Assembly: GCA_041659905.1 (NCBI GenBank)
Contig: JBAZXK010000001.1
Coordinates: forward strand, 122,670 to 186,669
Length of the DNA stretch: 64,000 nucleotides
DNA from: Patescibacteria group bacterium
GTDB lineage: Bacteria; Patescibacteriota; Kazan-3B-28; UBA10110
Direction of reading: 5' to 3'
Position numbers and translations under genes: made by a program. Numbering within the stretch: the stretch's first letter is position 1; the number at the start of each line of letters is the position of its first letter. Positions 4,302 through 50,593 of the stretch are shown in pieces. The notes under the pieces were generated by a model, which saw only the letters and a list, made by a program, of their open reading frames with translations, was not told where the DNA came from and searched no databases.

Positions 4302-6959
4302 ATGAACAGTCAAAAAAACATCTTTTGTGATATTTCTTCTCTTTCAAATGAAAGCGATGTGGAACAATTCTTTGTCATCAGATTATTACAATATCTTGGA
4401 TATTCTGATAATCAAATAAAAACCAAAACATCGCTTGATGAATTTCTTATCGGAAAAGGGGCTAAAAACGAAAAGTATAAACCTGATTATGTTTGTTTTG
4501 TGAACAACAAACCAAAGATTGTAATAGACGCAAAATCCCCCCAAGAAAATATTAATAATTATGTTTACCAAGTATCGGGTTATGCTTTAGCCTTAAATAA
4601 AAAATTCAGAAACGAAAACCCAGTTCGGTATACAGTTTTGACTAATGGAGTGGCATTTGCCCTTTATAATTGGGATGAGGAAGAACCTATATTAATTTGT
4701 AATTTTGAAGATTTTAATGAGAATAGTGTACTCTTTAAAAAACTCATTTCCTTGTTGGATGTAAAACATGTAAAACATTTAGCTGGCAATGTAGACTTCT
4801 CGCTTCAGAATTTTTTGAGTAAACCAACTGTAGAAGAAGTAAAATCATCATTTAATAGATGTCATAATATTATTTGGAAAAAGGAAAAGATCAGTCCAAC
4901 AGATGCTTTTTATGAATTTTCTAAGATAATTTTCGTAAAGCTTAGTGAAGATGCTCGTATACACAGATTAAAGAATGAAAATAAAGAACTTCGACGGACT
5001 GATTTTAAGTTTTCAACAGACTGGCTTGAAGAGCGGGAAATTGAAACAGAAAATCCACTAAGTTCAATTTTGTTTAAAGATATTTATGACAAGCTTCAAG
5101 AGGAGATTGATAAAAATAAAAAGAAACAAATTTTCCTAGAAGGTCAAATAGAGTTAAAAGCCCCAACAATCAAAGAGGTGGTTAGAGTGTTACAAAACTA
5201 CGATCTCTATGCCATAGACGAAGACTTAAATGGCCGTATGTTTGAAACATTCTTAAACGCTACAATCAGAGGTAAGGAATTAGGTCAATACTTCACACCC
5301 AGAAAAGTCGTTAAGTTTATGACTAAGCTCGCAAATCTGAGGATTGTAAGAGAGAACGATAAAAACAAAATTGATAGAGTTCTTGACGCATGTTGTGGTA
5401 GTGGAGGTTTTCTCATTGATGCAATGGCAGACTTAACCAGTAAAGTCGAACTCAATAATAGCCTTATACCATATAAAAACGAACTTTTTACTCAAATAAA
5501 AACTGAGGCTCTTTGGGGAATAGAAGCCAATCCCAAAATTTCTAGGGTGGCCAGAATAAACATGTATGCGCATGGTGATGGTGGAAGTAGGATTTATTGT
5601 GCCGACTCATTAGATAAAAACATTTCTATCACTAAAGGCACTAATCCAATTATTAAGAAAGAATTAGAAGAACTAAAGAAACTTCTCGTGGAAGAAGGGG
5701 TTGAATTTGATGTGGTTCTTACTAATCCACCTTTTAGTATGTCTTACAGCCAAAAAGATAAGGATGAAAAAGAAGTCCTTTTACAATATGCAAATTCAGA
5801 TTATACACAAAATCTGACCTTAAAAAGTGGAACAACGGAACTAAAATCTTCAGTAAAATCGAATGTTTTATTTATTGCTAGGTACAACAGTTTATTGAGA
5901 AAAGGTGGAAAATTACTAATTATTTTGGACAACTCTGTTCTTAACAGTTATTCTCATAAAGAATACAGAGATTATATTAGGAATAATTTCATTATTAAAG
6001 CCATTTTTCAATTACCAACTCATACTTTTGTTAATCAAGAGGCGGGTGGTATCACCTCAATTCTATATCTTGAAAAGAGAATATCAGCAGTACAAGAACA
6101 GCCCCCTGTTTTTGCAAGGGAAATAGAAAATGTAGGTCACAGTACATCAGGGAAAGAATTGTCCGTAGATGATTTTGATAATGTCCTGAAGGAATATAAA
6201 AGATACGAATTAGAGGGGAAACTCTATTTTAAAGGTGAAAAACCATTGAAGGATTATGAACACGATCTACTCTTTCTGGTCCCAGCCGAAAAGATTCCAG
6301 ACAGATTAGATGTCTTTTTTCACCAACCAAGCTATCACAATCTTTTAAGTAAACTTCGCTCTTTGAGCAGTAAAGGCAAATGTGAAATAAAGACCTTGTC
6401 TGATTTTGAAAAAATACCGAACATAGACACAGAAGAAACAGATGATTCAGACGCGATATACAAATATATTGATATCAGCACCATTGATAAGGAGAGAGGT
6501 TTTATTATGGAGGATGATTGCGATGAAGGCACAAGGGAACAACTGCCTGATAGGGCTAAGCTTCTAGTTAGACAAAATGACATAATTTTTTCGAAACCAT
6601 TTAGGTCATTGAAAAAAGTAGCTATTATTCCGTTGTCGTTAGACAAACAATTAGCTAGTAGTGGCTTCTACGGCATTCGTCCTTCAAATCGCGAAGAAGC
6701 TTGTATATTATGGAGTATATTCAAATCAAACTTGATACAAGTCCAGTTGCTTCATTTATCTAGCGGTTATACTCAACGGGAATTAAACGAAGAATATTTG
6801 AAAGAGTATCTTTTAATACCAATAACAAACAAAAAAGATGAACTTGCTAGAGCTATAGAAAATAGTATTTCTGAAGCAACTGATGCTCGTCAAGAAGAAT
6901 TAAAGGCAATTAGAAATATCATCTCTGAACCAGAGAAATCAATAGAGTATATAAATTAA
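4302..6959 (+). CDS. Single-polypeptide Type IIG/IIL (MmeI-like) restriction-modification enzyme: N-terminal PD-(D/E)xK nuclease, gamma-class N6-adenine MTase, C-terminal HsdS-like target-recognition domain
   Basis: KPDYVCF...IVIDAK (PD...D-x-K), GQYFTP, motif I VLDACCGSGGFL, motif IV NPPFS. The C-terminus (AKLLVRQNDIIFSKPF...VAIIP...QLASSGFYGIRP) resembles a type I S-subunit TRD. The gene is markedly AT-richer than its flanks and has no SD. Confidence 0.75.
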   Translation: MNSQKNIFCDISSLSNESDVEQFFVIRLLQYLGYSDNQIKTKTSLDEFLIGKGAKNEKYKPDYVCFVNNKPKIVIDAKSPQENINNYVYQVSGYALALNKKFRNENPVRYTVLTNGVAFALYNWDEEEPILICNFEDFNENSVLFKKLISLLDVKHVKHLAGNVDFSLQNFLSKPTVEEVKSSFNRCHNIIWKKEKISPTDAFYEFSKIIFVKLSEDARIHRLKNENKELRRTDFKFSTDWLEEREIETENPLSSILFKDIYDKLQEEIDKNKKKQIFLEGQIELKAPTIKEVVRVLQNYDLYAIDEDLNGRMFETFLNATIRGKELGQYFTPRKVVKFMTKLANLRIVRENDKNKIDRVLDACCGSGGFLIDAMADLTSKVELNNSLIPYKNELFTQIKTEALWGIEANPKISRVARINMYAHGDGGSRIYCADSLDKNISITKGTNPIIKKELEELKKLLVEEGVEFDVVLTNPPFSMSYSQKDKDEKEVLLQYANSDYTQNLTLKSGTTELKSSVKSNVLFIARYNSLLRKGGKLLIILDNSVLNSYSHKEYRDYIRNNFIIKAIFQLPTHTFVNQEAGGITSILYLEKRISAVQEQPPVFAREIENVGHSTSGKELSVDDFDNVLKEYKRYELEGKLYFKGEKPLKDYEHDLLFLVPAEKIPDRLDVFFHQPSYHNLLSKLRSLSSKGKCEIKTLSDFEKIPNIDTEETDDSDAIYKYIDISTIDKERGFIMEDDCDEGTREQLPDRAKLLVRQNDIIFSKPFRSLKKVAIIPLSLDKQLASSGFYGIRPSNREEACILWSIFKSNLIQVQLLHLSSGYTQRELNEEYLKEYLLIPITNKKDELARAIENSISEATDARQEELKAIRNIISEPEKSIEYIN

Positions 6960-9226: not shown

Positions 9227-9676
9227 ATGAAGAAGGGTAAAGATCAGTCTAACCAGGCCAATTCTTTGCCTAAAAGGCTCTTGGCTCCACCTGGGCTCAT
9301 TATGACCGGCAGTGTTTTGTTGCTAGTTTTGGCAGAAAAATATTGGTTTAGAGGAGCCTTAGCTGAAGATCTCCCTTCTGGCGATACGGCAGCCGGTTTT
9401 AACGTTTTTGCTGATCTGATTCAAGAAGCAGCAGGGCCGCTGGTGGGGGTGATCGCCGTTGCGGCGGTGGTAGCCGGAGGAATTATTTATGCTCTTTCCG
9501 GCGGGGAACCAGGGAGAGTTAAAATGGCTAAAAATGTTATTTTATCAGCTATTTACGGCCTGATACTATATATTCTTATGAAATGGTTAATGCAACTTTT
9601 AGGTACTACAGTTACTGATTATTTCTCCGATTTAACTAACATTGCTTGGGTGATGTTTGGTCCTAAGCTTGGCTAA
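9227..9676 (+). CDS. small membrane protein with signal-like N-terminus and two hydrophobic helices (VirB2/TrbC pilin-like topology)
   Basis: Basic N-terminus, then hydrophobic stretches GPLVGVIAVAAVVAGGIIYAL and VILSAIYGLILYILMKWLMQLL separated by a short polar loop. No SD. Confidence 0.45.
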   Translation: MKKGKDQSNQANSLPKRLLAPPGLIMTGSVLLLVLAEKYWFRGALAEDLPSGDTAAGFNVFADLIQEAAGPLVGVIAVAAVVAGGIIYALSGGEPGRVKMAKNVILSAIYGLILYILMKWLMQLLGTTVTDYFSDLTNIAWVMFGPKLG

Positions 9677-14905: not shown

Positions 14906-16075
14906 ATGGACACAATTAACCCTATCCAATCAGATGCTTCAGCCCAACCCGGAGGAGACGGCTCTCTTTTAAAAAGATTTCTGTCTGAAAGCGAAACTGC
15001 CCAAATGAACATTCTCAAGCCGTTCAAACTGGTTAGTGGGGTTTTGGGTGATCTGCGCGAGCGCGAACGAGAAGTATTGGTTATGCGCTACGGTTTATCT
15101 AATAGTGAAGCCAGTAAGGAAACGCTAGAAAGTATCGGCCGGCGTTTTACTGTGACCCGGGAAAGAGTCCGCCAAATTGAACACGCTGCCTTAAAAAAGG
15201 TGAGCAAGAAATTTTCCGGATCATTGAAACCAATTATTAAAGCTATTGAGAGTTATCTTCTGGCCAATGGTAATATTGCTGAAATGGAACACTTGGCTCA
15301 ATATTTTCATTTGCAGCCAGACAATTTAGATGCTCAGCTTGATGCCAAAGCTTTACGGTTATTAATGGATGCCTATGATAAAGTAGTCCCGCTCAAAAAA
15401 CAACCTTTGTTTAAAGAAGGCTGGGTAGCCAAGACTATCACTCAAGATTTATTAGTTCAAATTGAAGCTCAGGCGCAAAAGACTTTAGAACTCTCCGGTA
15501 AAGCTATATCCGAAACAGAATTAGTGCGGCAAATCAATCAACAATTACCCAATATTGATAGCGCTTTGATCGCCGGGGTTTTCAAAGTCAGCCATAAGCT
15601 AGGCTTAGATCATCAAGGAGCTTGGGGTTTATCGGCTTGGCCGCTGGTGATGCCGCGGCGGATCCGCGATAAAGTGTTTATTGTCTTAGAAGAAGCTGGC
15701 AAACCGCTGCACTTTGAAGACATTACTCGTTTAATCCAAAAAAGATATCCATCCGAGAAAAAAGTATTGAATCGGACTGTTCATAATGAACTGATTGGCG
15801 ACGCTAGATTTGTCCTAGTAGGGCGCGGGATTTATGCCCTGAGAGTCTGGGGATATCAACCCGGAGTCGTGGCGGATGTTATCAAGCAAATATTACAAAA
15901 AGCAGGTCGGCCGCTAACGGTAGGAGAAATAGTGGCGGAAGTGCTGAAGAGCCGACAAGTGAAAAAGAATACTATTATTGCCAACTTACAGAATCACGCC
16001 TTGTTCAAAAAGGTAGCTAAATCTACTTATGTATTGTCGGGTGATCCATCTAACCCCGAACCCCATGTTAATTAA
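14906..16075 (+). CDS. sigma-70 region-4-like HTH protein with a ~280-aa uncharacterized C-terminal domain
   Basis: LREREREVLVMRYGL...ETLESIGRRFTVTRERVRQIEHAALKKV is sigma-70 region 4 with no region 2. It is coupled to the downstream VirD4-like gene by a 12-nt gap. Confidence 0.6.
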   Translation: MDTINPIQSDASAQPGGDGSLLKRFLSESETAQMNILKPFKLVSGVLGDLREREREVLVMRYGLSNSEASKETLESIGRRFTVTRERVRQIEHAALKKVSKKFSGSLKPIIKAIESYLLANGNIAEMEHLAQYFHLQPDNLDAQLDAKALRLLMDAYDKVVPLKKQPLFKEGWVAKTITQDLLVQIEAQAQKTLELSGKAISETELVRQINQQLPNIDSALIAGVFKVSHKLGLDHQGAWGLSAWPLVMPRRIRDKVFIVLEEAGKPLHFEDITRLIQKRYPSEKKVLNRTVHNELIGDARFVLVGRGIYALRVWGYQPGVVADVIKQILQKAGRPLTVGEIVAEVLKSRQVKKNTIIANLQNHALFKKVAKSTYVLSGDPSNPEPHVN

Positions 16076-16087
16076 GGAGACACACTG

Positions 16088-21644
<5,557 letters not shown>

Positions 21645-27265: not shown

Positions 27266-29713
27266 ATGCTCTGGGGAGTAGTTATCACCATTCTAATTTT
27301 AGCCGGACTTGCTGTAGGCGGGTATTTTTTATCGAAGAATCGTAAGCAAAGCTCTGTCCGCCAACAGGCAGCTGCCGCTCTGAAAAGAAAACTCTTTCGG
27401 ATTACTGTTCCCAAGGGCGATCCGGAAACAGACAAAGCCAAAGAACTCAAAGACCTGATCGCCCCAGTCGAGGTGTTATTGCGCAACTTGCATGCGATGC
27501 AAGAAACTTTGCGCGGCGAGTACCTTACCCTAGAAATATTAGCTACCCAAGGATTTATCTCATTCTATGCCAGCGTACCGGGCGCACTGGCATCGTTATT
27601 GGAGAGACAAATTACAGCTCAGTATTCTGAAGCCACAGTGGAAGAAGTGGACGATCCCAATATTTTCCCTAAACAATGCGCTACCGCCGCTGTGCAGCTA
27701 GCTTTGAAGAAAGACTTCGTTTTTCCTATTCGAACTTACAAAACTTTCGAGACTGATACGCTCAATGCGCTGACTAATGCTTTGAGTAAATTAAACGAGA
27801 GCGCCGAGGGGGCCGGAGTGCAGATTTTAGTTCGTCCGGTGGACGATAAATGGCAAAAGAAGGGACAATTTGTCGCTAGCCAAATGAAGGCAGGCAAATT
27901 TTCTGATGATTCGTTGGCTCAAGGCGTGCTGAAGGGGATTGGAGGATTGTTAGTGCCCGGGGCAAGTAAAACCAACGATAAATCCAAACCAGAAGAGCTT
28001 AAACCGCTGACATCGGCCCAAGAAAAAATTATTCAAACGATTGGCGAAAAAGCGGCTCAGCCAGGTTTTGAAGTAGTCATCCGGTTAGTCACAGCCGCAG
28101 CTACTCCCGAAAATGCCAAAATTAACTTAAATAATATCCTGAGTAGTTTTAGCCAATTTACTTCCGAGACCAACAGATTTACTATCGCCAAGTTGCCAGA
28201 AGAAAAAGTGATGACACAGTTTATTTTCCGGTTATTCAGTTTAGGTAAGCCGGATATTCTCAACACCGAGGAAGTGGCCTCACTCTGGCATTTGCCGACA
28301 GCCCGGCTAGAAACGCCAAATATCCGCTGGATGCGCGCCAAGAAACTACCGCCGCCCAGTAACTTACCAAAAGAGGGGATTACCTTAGGAAAAAGCGTCT
28401 ATCGGGGAGTAGAAGCGATCATTAAAATGGAAGATGATGATCGGCGCCGGCATATCTATTGCATTGGTAAAACCGGGACGGGGAAAACTACTTGGATGCA
28501 GAATTTAGCTTACCAAGATATTATGGCCGGCAAGGGCGTCTGTGTCGTAGATCCGCATGGCGATATGGCTGATTGGTTGCTGGCGCGTATTCCGAAAGAA
28601 CGTGTGGATGACGTGATCTTGTTTTATCCTCCTGATCTTGATCGTCCCATGGGACTCAATATGTTAGAAGCCAAAACTTCTGCGCAAAAACAGGAAGTCG
28701 TTGCCCAATTGATTGCTATTTTCTATAAATTATTCGATCCTACTGGCAGCAATCAAATCATCGGCCCGATGTTCGAGCATTACATGCGTAATGCCATGCT
28801 CGCTCTCTTGGCGGATGACGAAAACGGAACTACTCTCGTAGAAATCCCGCGCATGTTCACAGACACCGAATTTCGCAATCAAAAGCTGGCTAAAGTGACA
28901 GATCCGGTGGTTAAACAATTCTGGTTGCAAGAATATGCCCAATCGCAACGCGGTCAGCAGTCGGCGGATATGTTGAGCTATGTGGTTAGCAAAATCGGCC
29001 GGTTTATCAGTAACGATATGATGCGGAATATTGTCGGGCAGACTAAGTCGGCCTTTGATCTGCGCGATATTATGGATAATAAGAAAATTCTGCTAATCAA
29101 TTTGGCCAAAGGCCTGACGGGAGATATCAACAGCAACCTGCTCGGATTTATTTTGGTGTCTAAGATTCAGATGGCCGCTTTATCACGGGCAGATATTCCG
29201 GAAAGTGAGCGCCAAGATTTTTATTTGTATATTGATGAGTTCCAAAATGTAACCACGGATTCAATTTCCATTATCTTATCAGAAGCCCGCAAATATCATT
29301 TAAATTTAATCGTCGCGCATCAGTTTGTGGCACAGTTGGATGAAAAGATCCGTGAGGCGGTTTTGGGAAATGTGGGGACTATGGTAAGCTTTACTATTGG
29401 CGCTACGGATGTGGAGGTGGTCGGCAAGCAATTTGCCCCGGAAGTGAGCGCCAATGACCTGATTAACATCGAAAATCGCAACGCCTATATTAAATTATTG
29501 ATTGATGGGGCAGTCAGCAAGCCATTTAACTTAACTGCGCTGCCGCCGATGGGGGAGGCCAGACCAAAAGTGGCGCAAGCCCTGAAGAATTTGTCCCGCT
29601 TGAAATATGGCCGGGATCGGAGAATAGTAGAGACAGAAATTATCCGGCGTAATCAGCTTCCGCCCAAATCAGCTAATCCACCTAAAACAGGGGATAAACC
29701 TACTTCTGTCTAA
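27266..29713 (+). CDS. membrane-anchored VirD4/TraG/TrwB-like ATPase, paralog 2
   Basis: N-terminal TM; Walker A CIGKTGTGKT, DPHGD, LYIDEFQNV. Same architecture as the CDS at 16088-18979. Confidence 0.7.
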   Translation: MLWGVVITILILAGLAVGGYFLSKNRKQSSVRQQAAAALKRKLFRITVPKGDPETDKAKELKDLIAPVEVLLRNLHAMQETLRGEYLTLEILATQGFISFYASVPGALASLLERQITAQYSEATVEEVDDPNIFPKQCATAAVQLALKKDFVFPIRTYKTFETDTLNALTNALSKLNESAEGAGVQILVRPVDDKWQKKGQFVASQMKAGKFSDDSLAQGVLKGIGGLLVPGASKTNDKSKPEELKPLTSAQEKIIQTIGEKAAQPGFEVVIRLVTAAATPENAKINLNNILSSFSQFTSETNRFTIAKLPEEKVMTQFIFRLFSLGKPDILNTEEVASLWHLPTARLETPNIRWMRAKKLPPPSNLPKEGITLGKSVYRGVEAIIKMEDDDRRRHIYCIGKTGTGKTTWMQNLAYQDIMAGKGVCVVDPHGDMADWLLARIPKERVDDVILFYPPDLDRPMGLNMLEAKTSAQKQEVVAQLIAIFYKLFDPTGSNQIIGPMFEHYMRNAMLALLADDENGTTLVEIPRMFTDTEFRNQKLAKVTDPVVKQFWLQEYAQSQRGQQSADMLSYVVSKIGRFISNDMMRNIVGQTKSAFDLRDIMDNKKILLINLAKGLTGDINSNLLGFILVSKIQMAALSRADIPESERQDFYLYIDEFQNVTTDSISIILSEARKYHLNLIVAHQFVAQLDEKIREAVLGNVGTMVSFTIGATDVEVVGKQFAPEVSANDLINIENRNAYIKLLIDGAVSKPFNLTALPPMGEARPKVAQALKNLSRLKYGRDRRIVETEIIRRNQLPPKSANPPKTGDKPTSV

Positions 29714-30734: not shown

Positions 30735-31502
30735 TTACCAATTAAAGTCAGGTTGTTCTAAAGGATTTTGGTTGTCGGTATAAAATTGGTTGGCGGGAGC
30801 CGCCGGAATAATCACATTCCCCCATTCCGTGTCAAAAAGTGGAACGGGATTTATGGCAGTGCGACTATCCTGCTTCGACTCGGAAGCGAGGCGAGCTTTT
30901 TTAATTAAATCTACTTGAAAATGCAAATGCGGATTGACTGTACCAGTTTTGCCTAAATGGCCGAGTAGATCCCCTACTTTAACCTGTTGGTTTTTCTTCA
31001 CGGAAATATTTTGCAGATGACCGTAAGTAATCTGGTAACCATCACCAGAATCGATAATTACAGTATTTCCAATTTTTTTACCGGCGAAAATGACTTTTCC
31101 GGTAGAAGCAGAAACCACTTCTATCCCCTCTCTCCCGGCAAAATCAATCCCATTATGGCGGTCGCCCCATTCGGGATATTTCACATTGTAAGGCTGTTTA
31201 ATGGCCTCTAACGCCCCGAACCAGCCATAAACGAACCAAGTATCGGTTTCGGGATTTCCAGCTACAAATTGGCTATTCTGAATGCCGAATTTAATTTCGC
31301 TTATGCCTGCAGTCCAAACTATTCCAGGGGTCTGATCATCTACACTACTCCAACGAGAAGCTGTGTTAAAAGGCAAGGATAGTTCCAGTAGAGGTAATTC
31401 TGTTATTGCATTAATTTGGCTGGCCTGGGAAGGTAAAACAAAATTGGGCCAGAAAACTATGCCCAAAGCTAGCCAAAATGTAACTAACAGCCGTTTATTC
31501 AT
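30735..31502 (-). CDS. M23 family (LytM-type) metallopeptidase, secreted
   Basis: Signal peptide; HNGIDFAG (HxxxD) and HLHFQV (HxH) motifs. Confidence 0.85.
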   Translation of the reverse strand: MNKRLLVTFWLALGIVFWPNFVLPSQASQINAITELPLLELSLPFNTASRWSSVDDQTPGIVWTAGISEIKFGIQNSQFVAGNPETDTWFVYGWFGALEAIKQPYNVKYPEWGDRHNGIDFAGREGIEVVSASTGKVIFAGKKIGNTVIIDSGDGYQITYGHLQNISVKKNQQVKVGDLLGHLGKTGTVNPHLHFQVDLIKKARLASESKQDSRTAINPVPLFDTEWGNVIIPAAPANQFYTDNQNPLEQPDFNW

Positions 31503-31520
31503 AAGAAGCTACCTTATCAG

Positions 31521-31539
31521 AAAACCAGCTCCCAGTCAA
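31521..31539 (-). promoter_or_regulatory. conserved promoter module TTGACT-GGGAGCnGGTTTT (copy 1 of 3) upstream of the M23 peptidase
   Basis: Minus strand reads TTGACTGGGAGCTGGTTTT. The same 18-19-mer lies upstream of the two paralogs at 47561-47578 and 48575-48592. Confidence 0.55.
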
Positions 31540-31627
31540 TGAAAATATTGATATTTCCGCCAAATTGTTTTATTATCTGTTTATCACTGATTCTTGACAG
31601 CAAAATTTTTTGAAGGAGTGTGACGAA

Positions 31628-31794: not shown

Positions 31795-31995
31795 ATGGAC
31801 ATTGTTCATATTGGTATTATTGCCGCGATGGCGATCGTGATCATCTGGGGGTTCGGTTGGTATTTGCTTATAAAAGCAAAACAGCGGAAATCAATCAAGG
31901 ACGCCAACGCGAGGCAGTGCAAATACAAAATCAACCCCGAACCTGGAGCCAAGCCTCCCGAACCTTTTCCTAAACAAATCCGCCAGAAGGAGTGA
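31795..31995 (+). CDS. small membrane protein (66 aa, N-terminal TM)
   Basis: AAAGGAGA SD; hydrophobic N-terminus HIGIIAAMAIVIIWGFGWYLLI followed by a basic tail. Confidence 0.5.
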   Translation: MDIVHIGIIAAMAIVIIWGFGWYLLIKAKQRKSIKDANARQCKYKINPEPGAKPPEPFPKQIRQKE

Positions 31996-32002
31996 TGATT
32001 TT

Positions 32003-32239
32003 ATGTCGCAAGATCAAAACGCGAATGCGACCAAAAAACAACACATTGAGGTTTTTCATGGTGACCATGTGGAAAGCGAAGCCAATCACTGGATAAAAAA
32101 TAATCCACAATGGTTTGCTAAGGATATTAGCCTGAGCCATACAGTTAGCTCCACCATGGAGACGACAGACTTGAACGTTCCCTATACTGTAGTAGAATCT
32201 AGTCCCGTATTGGCTATTCTATTTGAGTCTGTCGAATAG
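32003..32239 (+). CDS. small soluble hypothetical protein (78 aa)
   Basis: AAGGAG SD; followed by the terminator at 32274-32299. Confidence 0.5.
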   Translation: MSQDQNANATKKQHIEVFHGDHVESEANHWIKNNPQWFAKDISLSHTVSSTMETTDLNVPYTVVESSPVLAILFESVE

Positions 32240-46458: not shown

Positions 46459-46601
46459 GTCTCACCTCTAGATTAACCTATTAATTATCTGCGATAGTCC
46501 TCCATAGCTCGCAGAGCGAAGGACGGAACTCTATATCATAGTATCAGGTCAGGTTTTGTCAAAACTAAAAACTCGCCCTAGGTAGGGCGAGCAACTATGA
46601 A

Positions 46602-47498
46602 TCAATCAACTAGCCGTAGATCTGGCCAGCCGGCCTGCCAGTCGGTTCTTAATTCTGCAGTAAGATATCTTTCGGCCTCAAAAATCGATGGCTCTGCATT
46701 GTTTGCAAAGTATTCTGTCAAAATTACATCTACATCACTGAAGAAGTGATCTCTTTGCCTAGCGGGAAGTTCTTTTGTGTTATGGCAGTATTGTCTCCAT
46801 GCCCTATCATCATAGAGTCGGTCCAACGGCAGCCACTGCCACATCTGTCGGTTAAAGGGTAGCAACTGAAGATCTTTAGTAAGTTCTGCAGAAGAAGGAA
46901 CAATAAAATTGTCGCTCACTTCCAAAGATCCCAAGGGACTGCCCAAGACATGGTAAATTATACCGGTTATCATTACATTTTTTGTATAATCACTATATCC
47001 TGCTGGCAATTCCTCAAAAGTGGGGTAATAATTAAGCAAATCCTTGTCACTGATCGCTGTATTAACTACACAATGGGGCACTGTGGCATTAGGGATTACT
47101 ACCATGCGAAAATCCGCATATTGCAACGCAGGAAATGATACACCGTTATGATTGGAATTGCGAACAAATAACTCAGGATTTCCGTTGAGTTTGGTGTAAT
47201 ATCTCTGAGTTGGAGGCTTGATTGCCCCTGACTCCAACGAGATAACACTAAGTGCGCTAACTAGGATTAAACATATCAATAATACAGTGCTGTCGCGGAA
47301 CAAAACCCAAGCAAGCTCTAACAGAAGATACGGACGATCTTCTCTGTCGGTTGTACCAAGAGAATTAACAGCGCCAGAAATCCGGCGGATTTCGTTGGGG
47401 AGTATGCGGCGCGCTATGACAATCGTAATAATAACGACCGTAATAGCACCCAGCCACGATAATACCCAGTAACTCCAAAATAGGACATCGCTATTCAT
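46602..47498 (-). CDS. membrane-anchored hypothetical protein, paralog 1 of tandem pair
   Basis: N-terminal TM helices. Shares WQWLPLDRLYDDRAWRQY / FQWLPWERFRDNQQWYAKE and other blocks with the CDS at 47741-48490. Confidence 0.6.
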   Translation of the reverse strand: MNSDVLFWSYWVLSWLGAITVVIITIVIARRILPNEIRRISGAVNSLGTTDREDRPYLLLELAWVLFRDSTVLLICLILVSALSVISLESGAIKPPTQRYYTKLNGNPELFVRNSNHNGVSFPALQYADFRMVVIPNATVPHCVVNTAISDKDLLNYYPTFEELPAGYSDYTKNVMITGIIYHVLGSPLGSLEVSDNFIVPSSAELTKDLQLLPFNRQMWQWLPLDRLYDDRAWRQYCHNTKELPARQRDHFFSDVDVILTEYFANNAEPSIFEAERYLTAELRTDWQAGWPDLRLVD

Positions 47499-47513
47499 AG
47501 CGTGCCTCCTTAA

Positions 47514-47578
47514 TTTTCAATAGTGTCAGGCGCATTTACCTGTAGGGTCAGAATAGCAGAAAAACCGCTCCCAGTCAA
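47514..47578 (-). promoter_or_regulatory. conserved promoter (TTGACT-GGGAGCGGTTTT..TATTCT) plus conserved 5'-UTR hairpin for paralog 1
   Basis: Minus strand: TTGACTgggagcggtttttctgcTATTCT, then cugcaggNaaaugcgccugacacuauugaaaauu, about 90% identical to the copy at 48524-48592. Confidence 0.6.
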
Positions 47579-47740
47579 GGTTTTGTATATATTACGTTGT
47601 TTCAGGCTAGATCTGAGATCTTAAATTTCTATATTGGAGGGGCACCACTCAGCCAGTTGATAGAACACCTCAATCCCAATTAAAAACCCGCCCGTTAAGG
47701 CGAGGTTTTCTTCTATACTGCTAGTAGTGATGTGCAAATA

Positions 47741-48490
47741 TTACCAGTTATTGCTCTTACTCACGAGCGTAAAATCTGGCATATACCAATCGTGCCTCAA
47801 GCTTGTTATGATAGCCTGCTTGGCGGCTTCAGTGGTGGGTTGGGTAATTGTTGTGCCAAGATAATCTTGGAATGCCACTGTTGCTTGATTGAAGAACATA
47901 TTTTCTTGAATAACCACGAGGTCATTGTTGTGTTCTTCCTTGGCGTACCATTGTTGATTATCTCGAAATCGTTCCCAAGGCAACCACTGAAAACCACTGC
48001 GCTGGTGTTCCTCTAAAGCAAGAGAAACAAAGGAGTCATCTCCTTCAAGGAGTCGCTGGGAAAATGGTTTGAAAGTAACTATTATCTCGGCATAGTAAGG
48101 ATCTTCTGATGTCCCTTCGAGGAGAAATCTGCGAGTCACTTCAACCGTGGCATAGCGCTTAATGTAATGGTCCGGCTCTATGGGGTTAGATATCATTACC
48201 CCTTGGCTGTTCCTTTGATAAACATAACCGAGTACCGTTGATGTGTCAGCAATAGATAGAGGAGCTGCTGAAGATAAGGGTAGCCCGATAATAGGGATGG
48301 CCTTAGTAGAATTATCAGGTTGGAACAAAGAAAGTGAACCACCGAACAGTAGTGCATATCCCCATAATCCAGTCAGTGCAAACATTAGGCCTCGCCAACC
48401 CCGATCGCGCATTACCACACCAATAATAATGAATACCACTGGCATTATCCATAGGATGTAGAAAAAACTAAATTCTATGTTTTCGAGCAT
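47741..48490 (-). CDS. membrane-anchored hypothetical protein, paralog 2 of tandem pair
   Basis: Same architecture as the CDS at 46602-47498, with an AAGGAG SD. Confidence 0.6.
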   Translation of the reverse strand: MLENIEFSFFYILWIMPVVFIIIGVVMRDRGWRGLMFALTGLWGYALLFGGSLSLFQPDNSTKAIPIIGLPLSSAAPLSIADTSTVLGYVYQRNSQGVMISNPIEPDHYIKRYATVEVTRRFLLEGTSEDPYYAEIIVTFKPFSQRLLEGDDSFVSLALEEHQRSGFQWLPWERFRDNQQWYAKEEHNNDLVVIQENMFFNQATVAFQDYLGTTITQPTTEAAKQAIITSLRHDWYMPDFTLVSKSNNW

Positions 48491-48523
48491 GAATTGACTC
48501 CTTGCGTTTTATGCCCGCTGGGC

Positions 48524-48592
48524 AAAATTTTCAATAGTGTCAGGCGCATTTGCCTGCAGAGTTAGAATAGTATAAAACCCGCTCCCAGTCAA
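48524..48592 (-). promoter_or_regulatory. conserved promoter module plus 5'-UTR hairpin for paralog 2
   Basis: Minus strand: TTGACTgggagcgggttttatacTATTCT...gcaggcaaatgcgcctgacactattgaaaatt. Confidence 0.6.
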
Positions 48593-48709
48593 TATTTTAA
48601 TGTAACTTCTCCTTCCAGGCCAGAGGCGATTTTGCTCGGAGGGTAATATTATTCTTCGCCTGCCCGTGCCGGACTTGAGCGGCCAGGGAGTGAAATCGAG
48701 AAGTACTTT

Positions 48710-49462
48710 TTAGAGCTTATTTATTGGTAAAACAACCTCACGGATTTTGATTTTGGTGGGGAGAGCGGAAGTGGGGTTAAATTTTAAGAGTTGGTTAATA
48801 GTCAGGGGTATAGAAACCAGGCCAGTAGCCGGGTGTACGGAATAGGGGCTTCGGATCATCCCGTTTTTATGAATAATTTGTTCATCGAGTAAGATTGACT
48901 TGGCGGTAGTTTTGTCGGTGGAGCTGGTGGTAATAATCGGATTTTTCTTTAGAATAATTTTATAAAATTCGCCAGCATGTTTTGTTTGTAAGATTGTTTC
49001 CAATTCTGCTGCAAATTGTCTAATCTGTTTCCTGAATTTCAGCCAGTCCGGCTTCACATCACCTAGGCTCCACATAAAGTGAAATCCCCGATTACCGGAG
49101 AACTTCAGTAGATATTCAATGCCCTTTTTATCCAATAATTTCGCCATTTCGTAAGCGGCCAATTTAACCAAATCAAACATTTTATCTGTGCGCGCATCCA
49201 AATCCATCACAAACCAAACATCTTTTTCTCCTAATAGATGCGGATGGAATGAATAAGTGTGTAATTTCGCCCAAGCGATAATGTCTTTCGGACTATTTAG
49301 AGTAATCCAGCCGGATTTATCCGGTAGACCTTTGGCGCCATGCCGGCGATATAAAATATTCTTGTCAAAAACCTGTTGGACAGCGATTTTTCGATTCCGC
49401 AAAAATGGCCATGCTGCTGGCACCGCTTTTCCCCAATAATCTACTAACCAAGGTATCGGCAT
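48710..49462 (-). CDS. LigD-type primase-polymerase domain protein (AEP family, NHEJ polymerase)
   Basis: VWFVMDLDA (DxD) and FSGNRGFHF (SGxRGxH) motifs. The track start at 49552 (TTG) lies inside repeat A3; the ATG at 49462 (MPIPWLV) is preferred. Confidence 0.7.
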   Translation of the reverse strand: MPIPWLVDYWGKAVPAAWPFLRNRKIAVQQVFDKNILYRRHGAKGLPDKSGWITLNSPKDIIAWAKLHTYSFHPHLLGEKDVWFVMDLDARTDKMFDLVKLAAYEMAKLLDKKGIEYLLKFSGNRGFHFMWSLGDVKPDWLKFRKQIRQFAAELETILQTKHAGEFYKIILKKNPIITTSSTDKTTAKSILLDEQIIHKNGMIRSPYSVHPATGLVSIPLTINQLLKFNPTSALPTKIKIREVVLPINKL

Positions 49463-49477
49463 AACTCTTCTCTTTTT

Positions 49478-49550
49478 GTCATCCTGAGCGGAACAACAGT
49501 GGAGTCGAAGGATCTCCTCCACTAGATTCCTCGACCTCGCTCGGAATGAC
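49478..49550 (+). repeat. Family-A palindromic mini-repeat copy A3 between the ligase and polymerase genes
   Basis: gtcatcctgagcg...cgctcggaatgac termini; core gtggagtcgaaggatct...agattcctcgac. Confidence 0.8.
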
Positions 49551-49561
49551 AATAATAGATA

Positions 49562-50593
49562 TCAGTTCTCTTTAATAACTAATCTAGATGGTTTATCCAC
49601 TCGCAATCCCATATATACCGGTTGGCGCAGGATATTGTCTTTAGTCCATTCGCCAAAGGCAAATTCCCCCACCAGCCGCGGTTTGAGCCAGATAACAGTT
49701 TCATTTCTGGTTACCATACTCCCTCCCCTCCTAACCTCCTCGCCTAGCCGGCGAGGCTGGCCCTCTGCAGGGGAGGATTTTTTGGAGATGTCGACAAATG
49801 GAGATTTGGTGGATTTAAGTTTTAAGAATTTCTGCTTGAGCTCGCCACGCTCTGTATCAGTAAAACCAGTGCCGACTTTTCCGGCATAAACTAACTTCTT
49901 ACCCCGGTAATAACCCACCAAAACCGCTCCGAAAGTAGTTTTAGTCTTACCCTGACCGGGAGTGTAGGCCCCGATGACAAATTCCTGTTGGTTGTGGGTT
50001 TTGATCTTCACCCAATCACCGCTCCGCCTACCTTCTTGGTAGCGACTATCTATTCTTTTACCGATAATGCCCTCCCAGTGTTTTTGCTTAGCTTTTTTAA
50101 AAAGAGAGATGCCGTCGCTAGATAATGGTGCTAAATAATATAAAACCCCGAGTATGTAGGGTGGGTGAGGCTTGAATAGTAATCTAAGCTTTTCTTTACG
50201 CTCCAGCAGAGATTTAGTTTCCCAATTCTTGCCGTCATAATTTAGCAAATCAAAGGCCAAGTAGGCTGCCGGAACCCTTTTAGTCAGCTTGGCAATTTCA
50301 TGAGGATCGGTTTGACCAATGCGCGGCTGCAGAGCCTGAAAGCTACTAATACCTTTGCGAAAAGCGGTGATCTCACCATCTAGCACCAACTGTTTGGGAG
50401 ATAATTTCTTAATGGCTGCAACAATTTCCGGAAATTGTTTTGCCTTGTCTTTATTGTTTCGCGTCAGCAGTCTAACTTTTTCTCCGGTTTTAATTGCAAT
50501 AATCCGCATCCCGTCAATTTTATGCTCAAAAACCCACTCCTTGCTCTTGAAGGGTTTATCAACCAACCGGCAAAGCATCGGAGCGTATTTCAT
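49562..50593 (-). CDS. ATP-dependent DNA ligase (LigD/LigC-like ligase domain) carrying an in-frame family-B repeat insertion near the C-terminus
   Basis: Adenylation motif EHKIDGMR, OB-fold tail ...WLKPRLVGEFAFGEWT..LRQPVYMGLRVDK. The peptide SPAEGQPRRLGEEVRRGGS is encoded by repeat B3. Confidence 0.85.
   Translation of the reverse strand: MKYAPMLCRLVDKPFKSKEWVFEHKIDGMRIIAIKTGEKVRLLTRNNKDKAKQFPEIVAAIKKLSPKQLVLDGEITAFRKGISSFQALQPRIGQTDPHEIAKLTKRVPAAYLAFDLLNYDGKNWETKSLLERKEKLRLLFKPHPPYILGVLYYLAPLSSDGISLFKKAKQKHWEGIIGKRIDSRYQEGRRSGDWVKIKTHNQQEFVIGAYTPGQGKTKTTFGAVLVGYYRGKKLVYAGKVGTGFTDTERGELKQKFLKLKSTKSPFVDISKKSSPAEGQPRRLGEEVRRGGSMVTRNETVIWLKPRLVGEFAFGEWTKDNILRQPVYMGLRVDKPSRLVIKEN
49719..49785 (-). 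repeat. Family-B GC-rich element copy B3 inside the ATP-dependent ligase ORF
   Basis: The reverse complement reads cctcccctgcagagggccagcctcgccggctaggcgaggaggttaggaggggaggg. Compare B2 gagggcc-[hairpin]-aggttaggaggggag. Confidence 0.75.

Follow-up and report, generated by a model that had tools for sequence, protein, structure and literature searches.

Genomes in the candidate phyla radiation are tiny and encode few recognisable regulators, very few members have been cultured, and to our knowledge almost nothing is known about transcriptional regulation in these bacteria. The closest described counterparts of the element considered here are the extended -10 (TGn, '-16 region') SigA promoters of Gram-positives, the WalR/YycF and MtrA regulons of Firmicutes and Actinobacteria, and the spacer operators of the MerR family. 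The WalR site is a direct repeat (TGTWAH-N5-TGTWAH) found at variable positions, and MerR operators are dyad-symmetric and lie in over-long spacers of 19-20 nucleotides (nt). We know of no GGGAGC-like block after the -35 hexamer in described SigA or sigma-70 consensus sequences, and in the searchable literature we found neither a GGGAGC spacer box nor any promoter classes of Patescibacteria described. Such a box is part of a 19-mer that occurs three times in a 64,000-nt stretch of a Patescibacteria group bacterium (contig JBAZXK010000001.1; "the window"), upstream of a gene for an M23 family peptidase and of two tandem genes for paralogous membrane proteins (paralogues 1 and 2). The 19-mer is predicted with high confidence to be the front half of three promoters, and a moderately probable overall explanation is that it represents a subclass of SigA-type promoters with a spacer box, conserved in Patescibacteria.

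All coordinates follow the numbering of the window, and all three sites are read on the minus strand. On the plus strand, the pattern AAAACCNGCTCCCAGTCAA (also written AAAACCnGCTCCCAGTCAA) lies at 31521-31539, 47560-47578, and 48574-48592, with one mismatch at the second site and none at the other two; the second site is the one originally reported as an 18-mer at 47561-47578. The minus-strand form, TTGACTGGGAGCnGnTTTT, has three copies in the window and no match across 100 dinucleotide-preserving shuffles, which bears out the original prediction of a shared element. Exact matches to the 12-mer TTGACTGGGAGC and the 13-mer GGGAGCNGNTTTT, and exact copies of GGGAGCnGnTTTT, are likewise found at these three sites only within the window.

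Each site is intergenic, lies on the coding strand of the adjacent gene, and consists of a -35 hexamer TTGACT, a 17-nt spacer, and a -10 hexamer, which is TAAGGT for the M23 gene and TATTCT for both paralogues. The sequence reads thus agree with the earlier description of a -35 box fused to a conserved spacer and followed by TATTCT in the paralogues, and the proposed promoter module can be written as TTGACT-17-TAnnnT at all three sites. A -35 element near TTGACA, a TAnnnT hexamer 16-18 nt further on, and a position upstream of a gene on the same strand are all features of sigma-70/SigA-type promoters; judged by sequence, the three sites are very probably promoters of this type, in which TG usually extends the -10 hexamer and the hexamer itself reads TAnnnT. 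The distance of about 35 nt to the gene, as first described, applies to the M23 gene (37 nt from the start of TTGACT to the start codon) but not to the genes at 46602-47498 (80 nt) and 47741-48490 (102 nt), and the corresponding distances from the end of the -10 hexamer are 8, 51, and 73 nt. The 19-mer is located upstream of the -10 hexamer and would therefore act as DNA, not as the RNA switch that had been suggested as one form of the cis element, and it has no Rfam match.

The element is not restricted to this genome. Exact matches to TTGACTGGGAGCnGnTTTT were sought in one genome per species (185,579 species, 596 Gb), and 108 loci were found, compared to approximately 70 chance matches expected for 17 specified bases by our own estimate from the size of the collection. 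There are 35 copies in Patescibacteria-type metagenome-assembled genomes. In 25 of these, TAnnnT follows at a distance of exactly 17 nt, and in several others the distance is 16 or 18 nt. By comparison, TAnnnT is found at 17 nt in none of the 74 copies from other phyla, which are mostly within coding sequence, with a recurrent case encoding IDWEQIF. A scan of viral contigs gave one match, inside coding sequence (KIDWEQLF) and without a -10 hexamer. The Patescibacteria carriers include members of candidate division Kazan (QMNG01, META01, and METE01), a 560-kb chromosome (OY968788.1), JAQUNP01, JAZDHT01, JAZDLM01, DQGN01, and several Saccharibacteria. Across 30 promoter-type sites, positions that the search pattern left unfixed are also biased: the T and G of an extended -10 are present in 24 and 25 sites, respectively, an A lies 9 nt after the -10, the expected position of the start site, in 19, and A or T is weakly preferred immediately before the -35. 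Since the TG and the A occur at unfixed positions, these sites appear to be bona fide SigA-type promoters. The small regulon of a single genome that was first envisaged is thus replaced by a lineage-wide promoter subclass.

Comparison of orthologous upstream regions, as suggested in the original prediction, points in the same direction. The M23 orthologues were collected by a protein-based metagenome search (about 28 loci) and not by the motif, and the 11 that were compared are 46-75% identical to the protein of the window. The box recurs upstream of these 11 genes, where conservation is limited to the stretch from TTGAC to ATG and the sequence upstream of position -36 is unalignable. The -35 hexamer of orthologues is TTGACT or TTGACC. 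With increasing distance, GGGAGC decays to GGGAGA, GGGAAT, AGGAGC, GAGAGC, TAGAGC, or CAGACC, and the T-rich tract becomes merely A/T-rich; in distant orthologues, the box can be described as rGrAGC followed by a T-rich tract. The box, GGGAGC-nGn-TTTT, therefore occupies a fixed register in the spacer next to the -35 and is conserved across Patescibacteria.

The same comparison bears on the start of the M23 transcript. In the window, the gap between the -10 and the ATG at 31502 is just 8 nt (31510-31503), and one of 8-9 nt is kept in 10 of the 11 orthologues, down to 46% protein identity. Because this gap is retained, the M23 mRNA is predicted to be leaderless, starting at or 1 nt before the AUG; the A of the ATG coincides with the position 9 nt after the -10 at which A is enriched among the box promoters. 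On the opposite strand, a divergent TTGATA-17-TATTAT at 31548-31576 (plus strand) lies 8 nt from the M23 -35 hexamer (region 31534-31576) and faces two small open reading frames (ORFs; 31795-31995 and 32003-32239). Back-to-back divergent -35 hexamers (GTCAAG, about 10 nt, TTGACT) are also present at loci L103, L043, L013, L084, and L038.

Box promoters differ from other promoter-like sites in the same DNA. When TTGAC-N18-TAnnnT sites of the window and of the fetched loci are scored for how closely the spacer resembles the box, two modes emerge, at 0-8 (63 sites) and 9-11 (36 sites), although the fetched loci were selected on the motif and the upper mode is thereby ascertained. In the same DNA, 25 TG-extended promoter-like sites bear no resemblance to the GGGAGC box, the upstream regions of the two tRNA genes of the window lack it, and none of the 35 exact matches precedes an rRNA, tRNA, or ribosomal-protein gene. 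This restricted occurrence argues for a promoter subclass. In 530 kb, GGGAGCnGnTTT is almost always preceded by TTGAC, and the -35 and the box therefore behave as one composite element. The box is likely a selected cis-element: as had been proposed, it appears to be maintained by selection and not left over from a duplication, given that many Patescibacteria genomes conserve it, in orthologous as well as in unrelated promoters.

The genes downstream of the box include those for M23 peptidases, L,D-transpeptidases (YkuD domain), an M16 peptidase, and a ClpP-like protein, and many others encode proteins without known function; many of the products have a signal peptide or transmembrane segments. 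One motif thus precedes several related genes across genomes (M23, L,D-transpeptidase, and signal-peptide proteins), as in a regulon. Five of the L,D-transpeptidase genes are full-length, and the sixth, at L062, is a 179-amino-acid (aa) ORF matching the N-terminal part; these six genes are mostly 36-50% identical (range 26-74%), and the exact motif is present at all of them. An N-terminal hydrophobic segment within the first 70 residues is found in 16 of the 35 downstream proteins and in 52 of 224 background ORFs (Fisher p = 0.006); the background ORFs come from the same DNA, and the test is a crude one on partly orthologous loci. The proteins at L062 and L007 are also signal-peptide-like but fall below the threshold. 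These results support a bias of box targets towards envelope proteins, not an exclusive envelope regulon. Of the small envelope-remodelling regulon in the original prediction, the leaning towards envelope and cell-wall proteins stands, whereas its being small or private to one genome does not.

At L008, L088, L009, L016, L017, L023, and L087, the box promoter lies inside a longer homologous module spanning about 100 nt around the motif. In Kazan-type genomes, this module consists of TTTGCTCAATGGG ... GGGAG..GAAAAC, the box promoter, and a structured leader of 54-106 nt, and it precedes cytosolic proteins without known function and without signal peptides. In L008 and L087, a second direct copy of CTGGGAGCG is located 21-22 nt upstream of the box. 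Upstream of the -35, enrichment of 6-mers is limited to GTCAAG, from the back-to-back divergent -35 hexamers, and to the G-rich module of this one homologous group.

The two paralogues combine nearly identical promoters and leaders with diverged proteins. Over the stretch that starts at the -35 and runs through the shared block of the 5' untranslated region (UTR), they are 89% identical (58/65), in comparison to 28% over the C-terminal 107 residues of the proteins (approximately 24-28% overall range), which agrees with the original observation. Global nucleotide identities of the coding sequences were left aside, as they are inflated by free end gaps. Neither protein matches a Pfam family. A word-indexed homologue search returned the query itself only, paralogue 2 being identical to a hypothetical protein of a Patescibacteria metagenome-assembled genome, and an exhaustive profile search identified five real relatives, P0003-P0007; P0003 is the orthologue of paralogue 1, judged by the N-terminus MNSDVLFW. 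A further weak profile match, P0008, is an unrelated repeat protein and was set aside, and a local phmmer search found no member of the family in the 108 motif loci. An AlphaFold2 model of paralogue 1, built from an alignment of 7 sequences, was of insufficient quality for a fold search (predicted local distance difference test score of 53).

Between genomes, members of this family are 23-37% identical, against 75-91% for the adjacent AhpC proteins of the same genomes. Such hypervariability suggests diversifying selection on a surface protein, and the locus may have a role in host or phage interactions. It also largely explains why the non-coding region is more conserved than the proteins, which had been offered as an argument for a cis-regulatory element, but the contrast within this genome remains. 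TTGACy and rGrAGC are kept at L157, L158/L159, L160, and L161 and are absent at L162 (Table 1). As the loci of the relatives L157, L158, and L161 have a single family copy in the slot upstream of AhpC, we infer that the pair in the window arose by a lineage-specific tandem duplication in which a hypervariable gene was copied along with its promoter and leader. A terminator-like hairpin follows each paralogue, and the two genes are therefore regarded as separate transcription units.

The family lies upstream of AhpC at the four loci that include the downstream gene and is preceded by the LigD PrimPol gene or a leucine-rich repeat protein gene. Upstream of the paralogue 2 promoter, a block of about 90 nt (approximately 48625-48730) is 92% identical to positions 663-801 of L157 apart from indels of 30, 13, and 3 nt, while the upstream gene differs between the two genomes. 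In the window, the LigD PrimPol ORF overlaps this block with its stop codon; the block could be a small RNA or other regulatory element.

The hairpin described earlier in the paralogue leaders (caggc-aaatgc-gcctg) folds as proposed, with energies of -6 and -8.9 kcal/mol. The paralogues differ at one position of the stretch CAGGyAAATGCGCCTGACACTATTGAAAATT. In paralogue 1, the hairpin is followed by the conserved single-stranded tract ACACTATTGAAAATT and the Shine-Dalgarno sequence AAGGAGG; in paralogue 2, the same tract is followed by a small hairpin (GCCC-AGC-GGGC, 48523-48513) and AAGGAG. The hairpin starts 8 nt after the -10 in both paralogues, L157, L160, and L161, and each of the 7 family members has a hairpin beginning 7-13 nt after the -10, including an unrelated 9-bp hairpin at L158 (11 nt) and an unrelated 7-bp hairpin at L162 (8 nt). 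Across five sequences and five pairs, 25 of 25 cells are paired, and compensatory changes are present at two of the five pairs (G-C to A-U in L160; C-G to U-A in L161 and to U-G in paralogue 1). The 15-nt ACACTATTGAAAATT tract after the stem is conserved only in the closest members (the paralogues and L157). Scans with Rfam found only two tRNAs reaching the gathering score in the window and nothing beyond tRNAs in 7 related loci.

It is improbable that the shared 5' UTR is a ligand- or protein-responsive RNA switch acting on translation or termination, as the original prediction had suggested. The hairpin and tract common to the paralogues and L157, together with the second hairpin ahead of the Shine-Dalgarno sequence in paralogue 2, would fit a switch, but the conserved structure is one stem of 5-6 bp without an Rfam family, conservation beyond the stem is lost in L160, L161, L158, and L162, the full UTRs have folding energies no better than those of shuffles, and an alternative, mutually exclusive pairing with the Shine-Dalgarno sequence was not found. 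The paralogue stem-loop is most likely a 5'-terminal stabilising or protective element for the mRNA, which is preferred over ligand sensing because the small 5-bp stem begins about 8 nt after the -10. The similarity of the spacers and UTRs could also be a functionless by-product of recent duplication or gene conversion in this genome. The paralogues are indeed a tandem duplication of a gene that is single-copy in L157, L158, and L161, and in such a fast-evolving family low protein identity is no proof of an old duplication. This explanation is nevertheless very improbable, considering that the same box is found at the unrelated M23 promoter 16 kb away and at orthologous and non-orthologous promoters of about 17 other genomes, and that the hairpin carries compensatory changes.

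With regard to what reads the box, it may mark a regulon read by a dedicated candidate factor, a reading that we hold tentatively, at slightly less than even chances. A trans-acting factor is favoured because the tRNA regions and many other promoter-like sites lack the box, the targets are biased, and extra copies of the core occur upstream at some loci. A less likely, though still appreciable, alternative is that the box is a basal element contacted by the RNA polymerase holoenzyme of Patescibacteria, setting promoter strength or the response to supercoiling without any regulon. The fixed register with TTGACy and a spacer of 17 (sometimes 16) nt, the near absence of the box on its own, the lack of dyad symmetry, and the lack of a transcription factor among the downstream genes are all in line with a basal element. 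A basal element, however, would not be expected to be missing from the tRNA upstream regions and from many TG-extended promoter-like sites of the same DNA, or to have no rRNA, tRNA, or ribosomal-protein gene after any of the 35 exact matches, and the second CTGGGAGCG copy in L008 and L087 is easier to reconcile with a DNA-binding factor. It is doubtful that TTGACy-GGGAGC is the operator of a Patescibacteria-specific regulator coordinating peptidoglycan remodelling and surface-protein expression; as for occurrence apart from a core promoter, GGGAGCnGnTTT is almost always fused to TTGAC, and the extra CTGGGAGCG copies are those of L008 and L087. Still less probable is that the promoters are recognised by an alternative factor of the sigma-70 family, with a -35 recognition that reaches into GGGAGC. 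Functionally biased genes behind a distinct promoter subclass are typical of alternative sigma factors, but such a factor is considered unlikely because the -35, TG, and -10 elements are those of primary sigma factors (TTGACT and TGnTAnnnT); moreover, by inspection against established consensus sequences, there is no likeness to ECF (GGAAC / CGTC), sigma-28, or sigma-54 promoters, and the window has no sigma gene apart from a region-4 protein without region 2.

This region-4 protein (14906-16075) is the candidate reader. Its recognition helix, VTRERVRQIE, compares to VTRERIRQIE in SigA, and region 4 is followed by two HARE-HTH matches. More than 7,900 homologues are found in Patescibacteria-type sequences, including the box-carrying genomes, and in the window the gene is directly upstream of a TraG/VirD4-like ATPase gene (16088-18979). 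The protein could bind TTGAC/-35 hexamers. In the proposed mechanism, the box would be a recognition element at a fixed position, whose reader would be a trans-acting factor specific to the lineage or else the holoenzyme, and this reading would couple the downstream genes into a co-regulated set. If the region-4 protein is that factor, its region-4 helix may contact the -35 and its HARE-HTH domains GGGAGC, so that it would act as a mimic or partner of sigma region 4 at a defined promoter subclass. Each paralogue would be transcribed alone from its own promoter to its own terminator, and each transcript would start with the conserved 5-bp stem-loop protecting the 5' end of the mRNA, followed by the conserved single-stranded tract.

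Several observations weigh against this interpretation or parts of it. The downstream genes yielded no transcription factor, and a Pfam search of the small ones for helix-turn-helix domains found none; for the regulator binding site of the original prediction, no regulator was found among its own targets. The box is non-palindromic and occurs in a single register by the -35, which fits a contact with RNA polymerase or sigma as well as an operator. The region-4 protein is too widespread in the phylum for its co-occurrence with the box to be informative. The exact-match scan yields an ascertained gene set in which loci are partly orthologous and non-independent, and approximately half of the downstream genes are cytosolic or without known function, so that the envelope regulon is a tendency and not a rule. 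As for the transcripts, 42 of 500 column shuffles score as well on the hairpin, for which there are only 5 sequences, and the full UTRs fold no better than shuffles (z = +0.33 and -0.97). The AAGG within TAAGGT, 9 nt upstream of the M23 ATG, can also be read as a Shine-Dalgarno-like sequence.

The remainder of the window has an unusual mix of functions. On the plus strand of positions 1-30000, the repair genes uvrB, uvrA, and uvrC are interleaved with genes of DNA-uptake or transfer type, including a pilin of type IV secretion system type (9227-9676), the TraG/VirD4-like ATPase mentioned above and another at 27266-29713, dprA, topoisomerase I, and an Eco57I/MmeI-like restriction-modification fusion (4302-6959). 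Next to paralogue 2, LigD is split into PrimPol (48710-49552) and ATP-ligase (49562-50593) genes (minus strand; 48710-50593), a module of non-homologous end-joining near which no Ku gene was noticed. This module is absent from the corresponding slot in L157 and L158.

Table 1. Promoters, genes, and leader elements of the window and of related loci.
Feature	Position or locus	Strand	Details
Sigma-region-4 + HARE-HTH protein, 389 aa	14906-16075	plus	Residues 30-100 align with SigA/RpoD region 4
M23 family peptidase	30735..31502	minus	N-terminal signal peptide; Pfam PF01551, E = 5e-26
M23 promoter	31511..31539	minus	TTGAC to ATG conserved in 11 orthologues
M23 -35 TTGACT	31539-31534	minus	
M23 spacer box GGGAGCTGGTTTT	31533-31521	minus	Followed by CTGA (extended -10 TG)
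M23 -10 TAAGGT	31516-31511	minus	
M23 site, full read		minus	TTGACT-GGGAGCTGGTTTTCTGA-TAAGGT
AhpC gene promoter, ordinary	46562-46535	minus	TTGACA-16-TATGAT, no box; after paralogue 1 terminator
Terminator-like hairpin after paralogue 1	46571..46592	minus	
Paralogue 1, 298 aa	46602..47498	minus	N-terminal transmembrane helices, conserved C-terminal domain
Paralogue 1 5' UTR	47499..47549	minus	Hairpin CAGGT-AAATGC-GCCTG, 47542-47527
Paralogue 1 promoter	47550..47578	minus	-35 TTGACT, 47578-47573; box GGGAGCGGTTTTT
Paralogue 1 -10 TATTCT	47555-47550	minus	Extended -10 TGC
Second site, full read		minus	TTGACT-GGGAGCGGTTTTTCTGC-TATTCT
Terminator-like hairpin after paralogue 2	47687..47704	minus	With T run
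Paralogue 2, membrane protein, 249 aa	47741..48490	minus	
Paralogue 2 5' UTR	48491..48563	minus	Hairpin CAGGC-AAATGC-GCCTG, 48556-48541
Paralogue 2 promoter	48564..48592	minus	-35 TTGACT, 48592-48587; box GGGAGCGGGTTTT
Paralogue 2 -10 TATTCT	48569-48564	minus	
Third site, full read		minus	TTGACT-GGGAGCGGGTTTTATAC-TATTCT
Promoter start, paralogue family	L157		TTGACTGGAAGCGGATTTT
Promoter start, paralogue family	L158/L159 (same gene, P0004)		TTGACTAGAAGCGGTTTTTT, 16-nt spacer
Promoter start, paralogue family	L160		TTGACCAGAAGCTGATATTTT
Promoter start, paralogue family	L161		TTGACCGGAAGCCGATTTATGT, 16-nt spacer
Promoter, paralogue family	L162		Ordinary TTGACA, no box
M23 genes with box	Window, L095, L110-L126		
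L,D-transpeptidase genes with box	L002, L100, L006, L084, L007, L062		Six genomes

The recurrence of the box before cell-wall enzymes and membrane proteins points to a conserved regulatory system. The subclass spans several candidate divisions (Kazan, Saccharibacteria, and unclassified Patescibacteria) and predicts a co-regulated gene set. The box is a ready probe for pulling down its reader, and box promoters may serve as native parts for the genetic systems now available in Saccharibacteria.

Comparisons with ECF, sigma-54, WalR, MerR, CtsR, CodY, and MraZ sites were made by inspection against established consensus sequences. The elements TTGACT and TAnnnT are not the GGAAC-type -35 and CGTC-type -10 of an ECF sigma promoter; for sigma-54, TGG and TTT are present and the GC of the -12 element is absent; and the CtsR site is a direct GGTCAAA repeat, whereas the copies here are inverted. 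WalR, CodY, and MraZ sites were dropped on the same inspection. A methylation target of the Eco57I/MmeI-like enzyme of the window was also dismissed, as it would not explain phylum-wide conservation.

Among regulons, those of WalR/YycF and MtrA resemble the present case in that a shared cis-motif links peptidoglycan-remodelling (M23/LytM-type) and envelope genes, but the GGGAGC box has no repeat and occupies a fixed register inside the spacer, unlike the WalR site. The MerR-family operators likewise place a conserved element between the -35 and the -10, with the bound factor on the RNA polymerase-binding face, but the box is asymmetric and its spacer has the optimal length of 17 nt. At the level of the transcripts, the paralogue leaders resemble the stabilising stem-loops of ompA, ermC, and aprE, having a short stem within a few nt of the predicted 5' end whose presence and position are kept while its sequence varies, although the stem is only 5-6 bp in most members of the family. 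Leaderless mRNAs are common in Actinobacteria, Deinococcus, and archaea, and the conserved distance of 8-9 nt between the -10 and the ATG of the M23 gene would be in line with theirs, whereas other genes of the box promoter class have leaders of 24-106 nt with a Shine-Dalgarno sequence.

A further likeness is to the extended -10 SigA promoters of Gram-positives, with which box sites share TTGACx, the 17-nt spacer, TAnnnT, the TG before the -10 (24-25 of 30 sites), and a T-rich tract upstream of the TG. The box sites differ in adding an invariant GGGAGC directly after the -35, and in forming only a subset of promoters. As far as sequence features allow, the box promoter works like an extended -10 SigA promoter, having every sequence-level property of that family. 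What is new here is a lineage-wide promoter subclass with a spacer box, and the underlying object is an ordinary promoter type.

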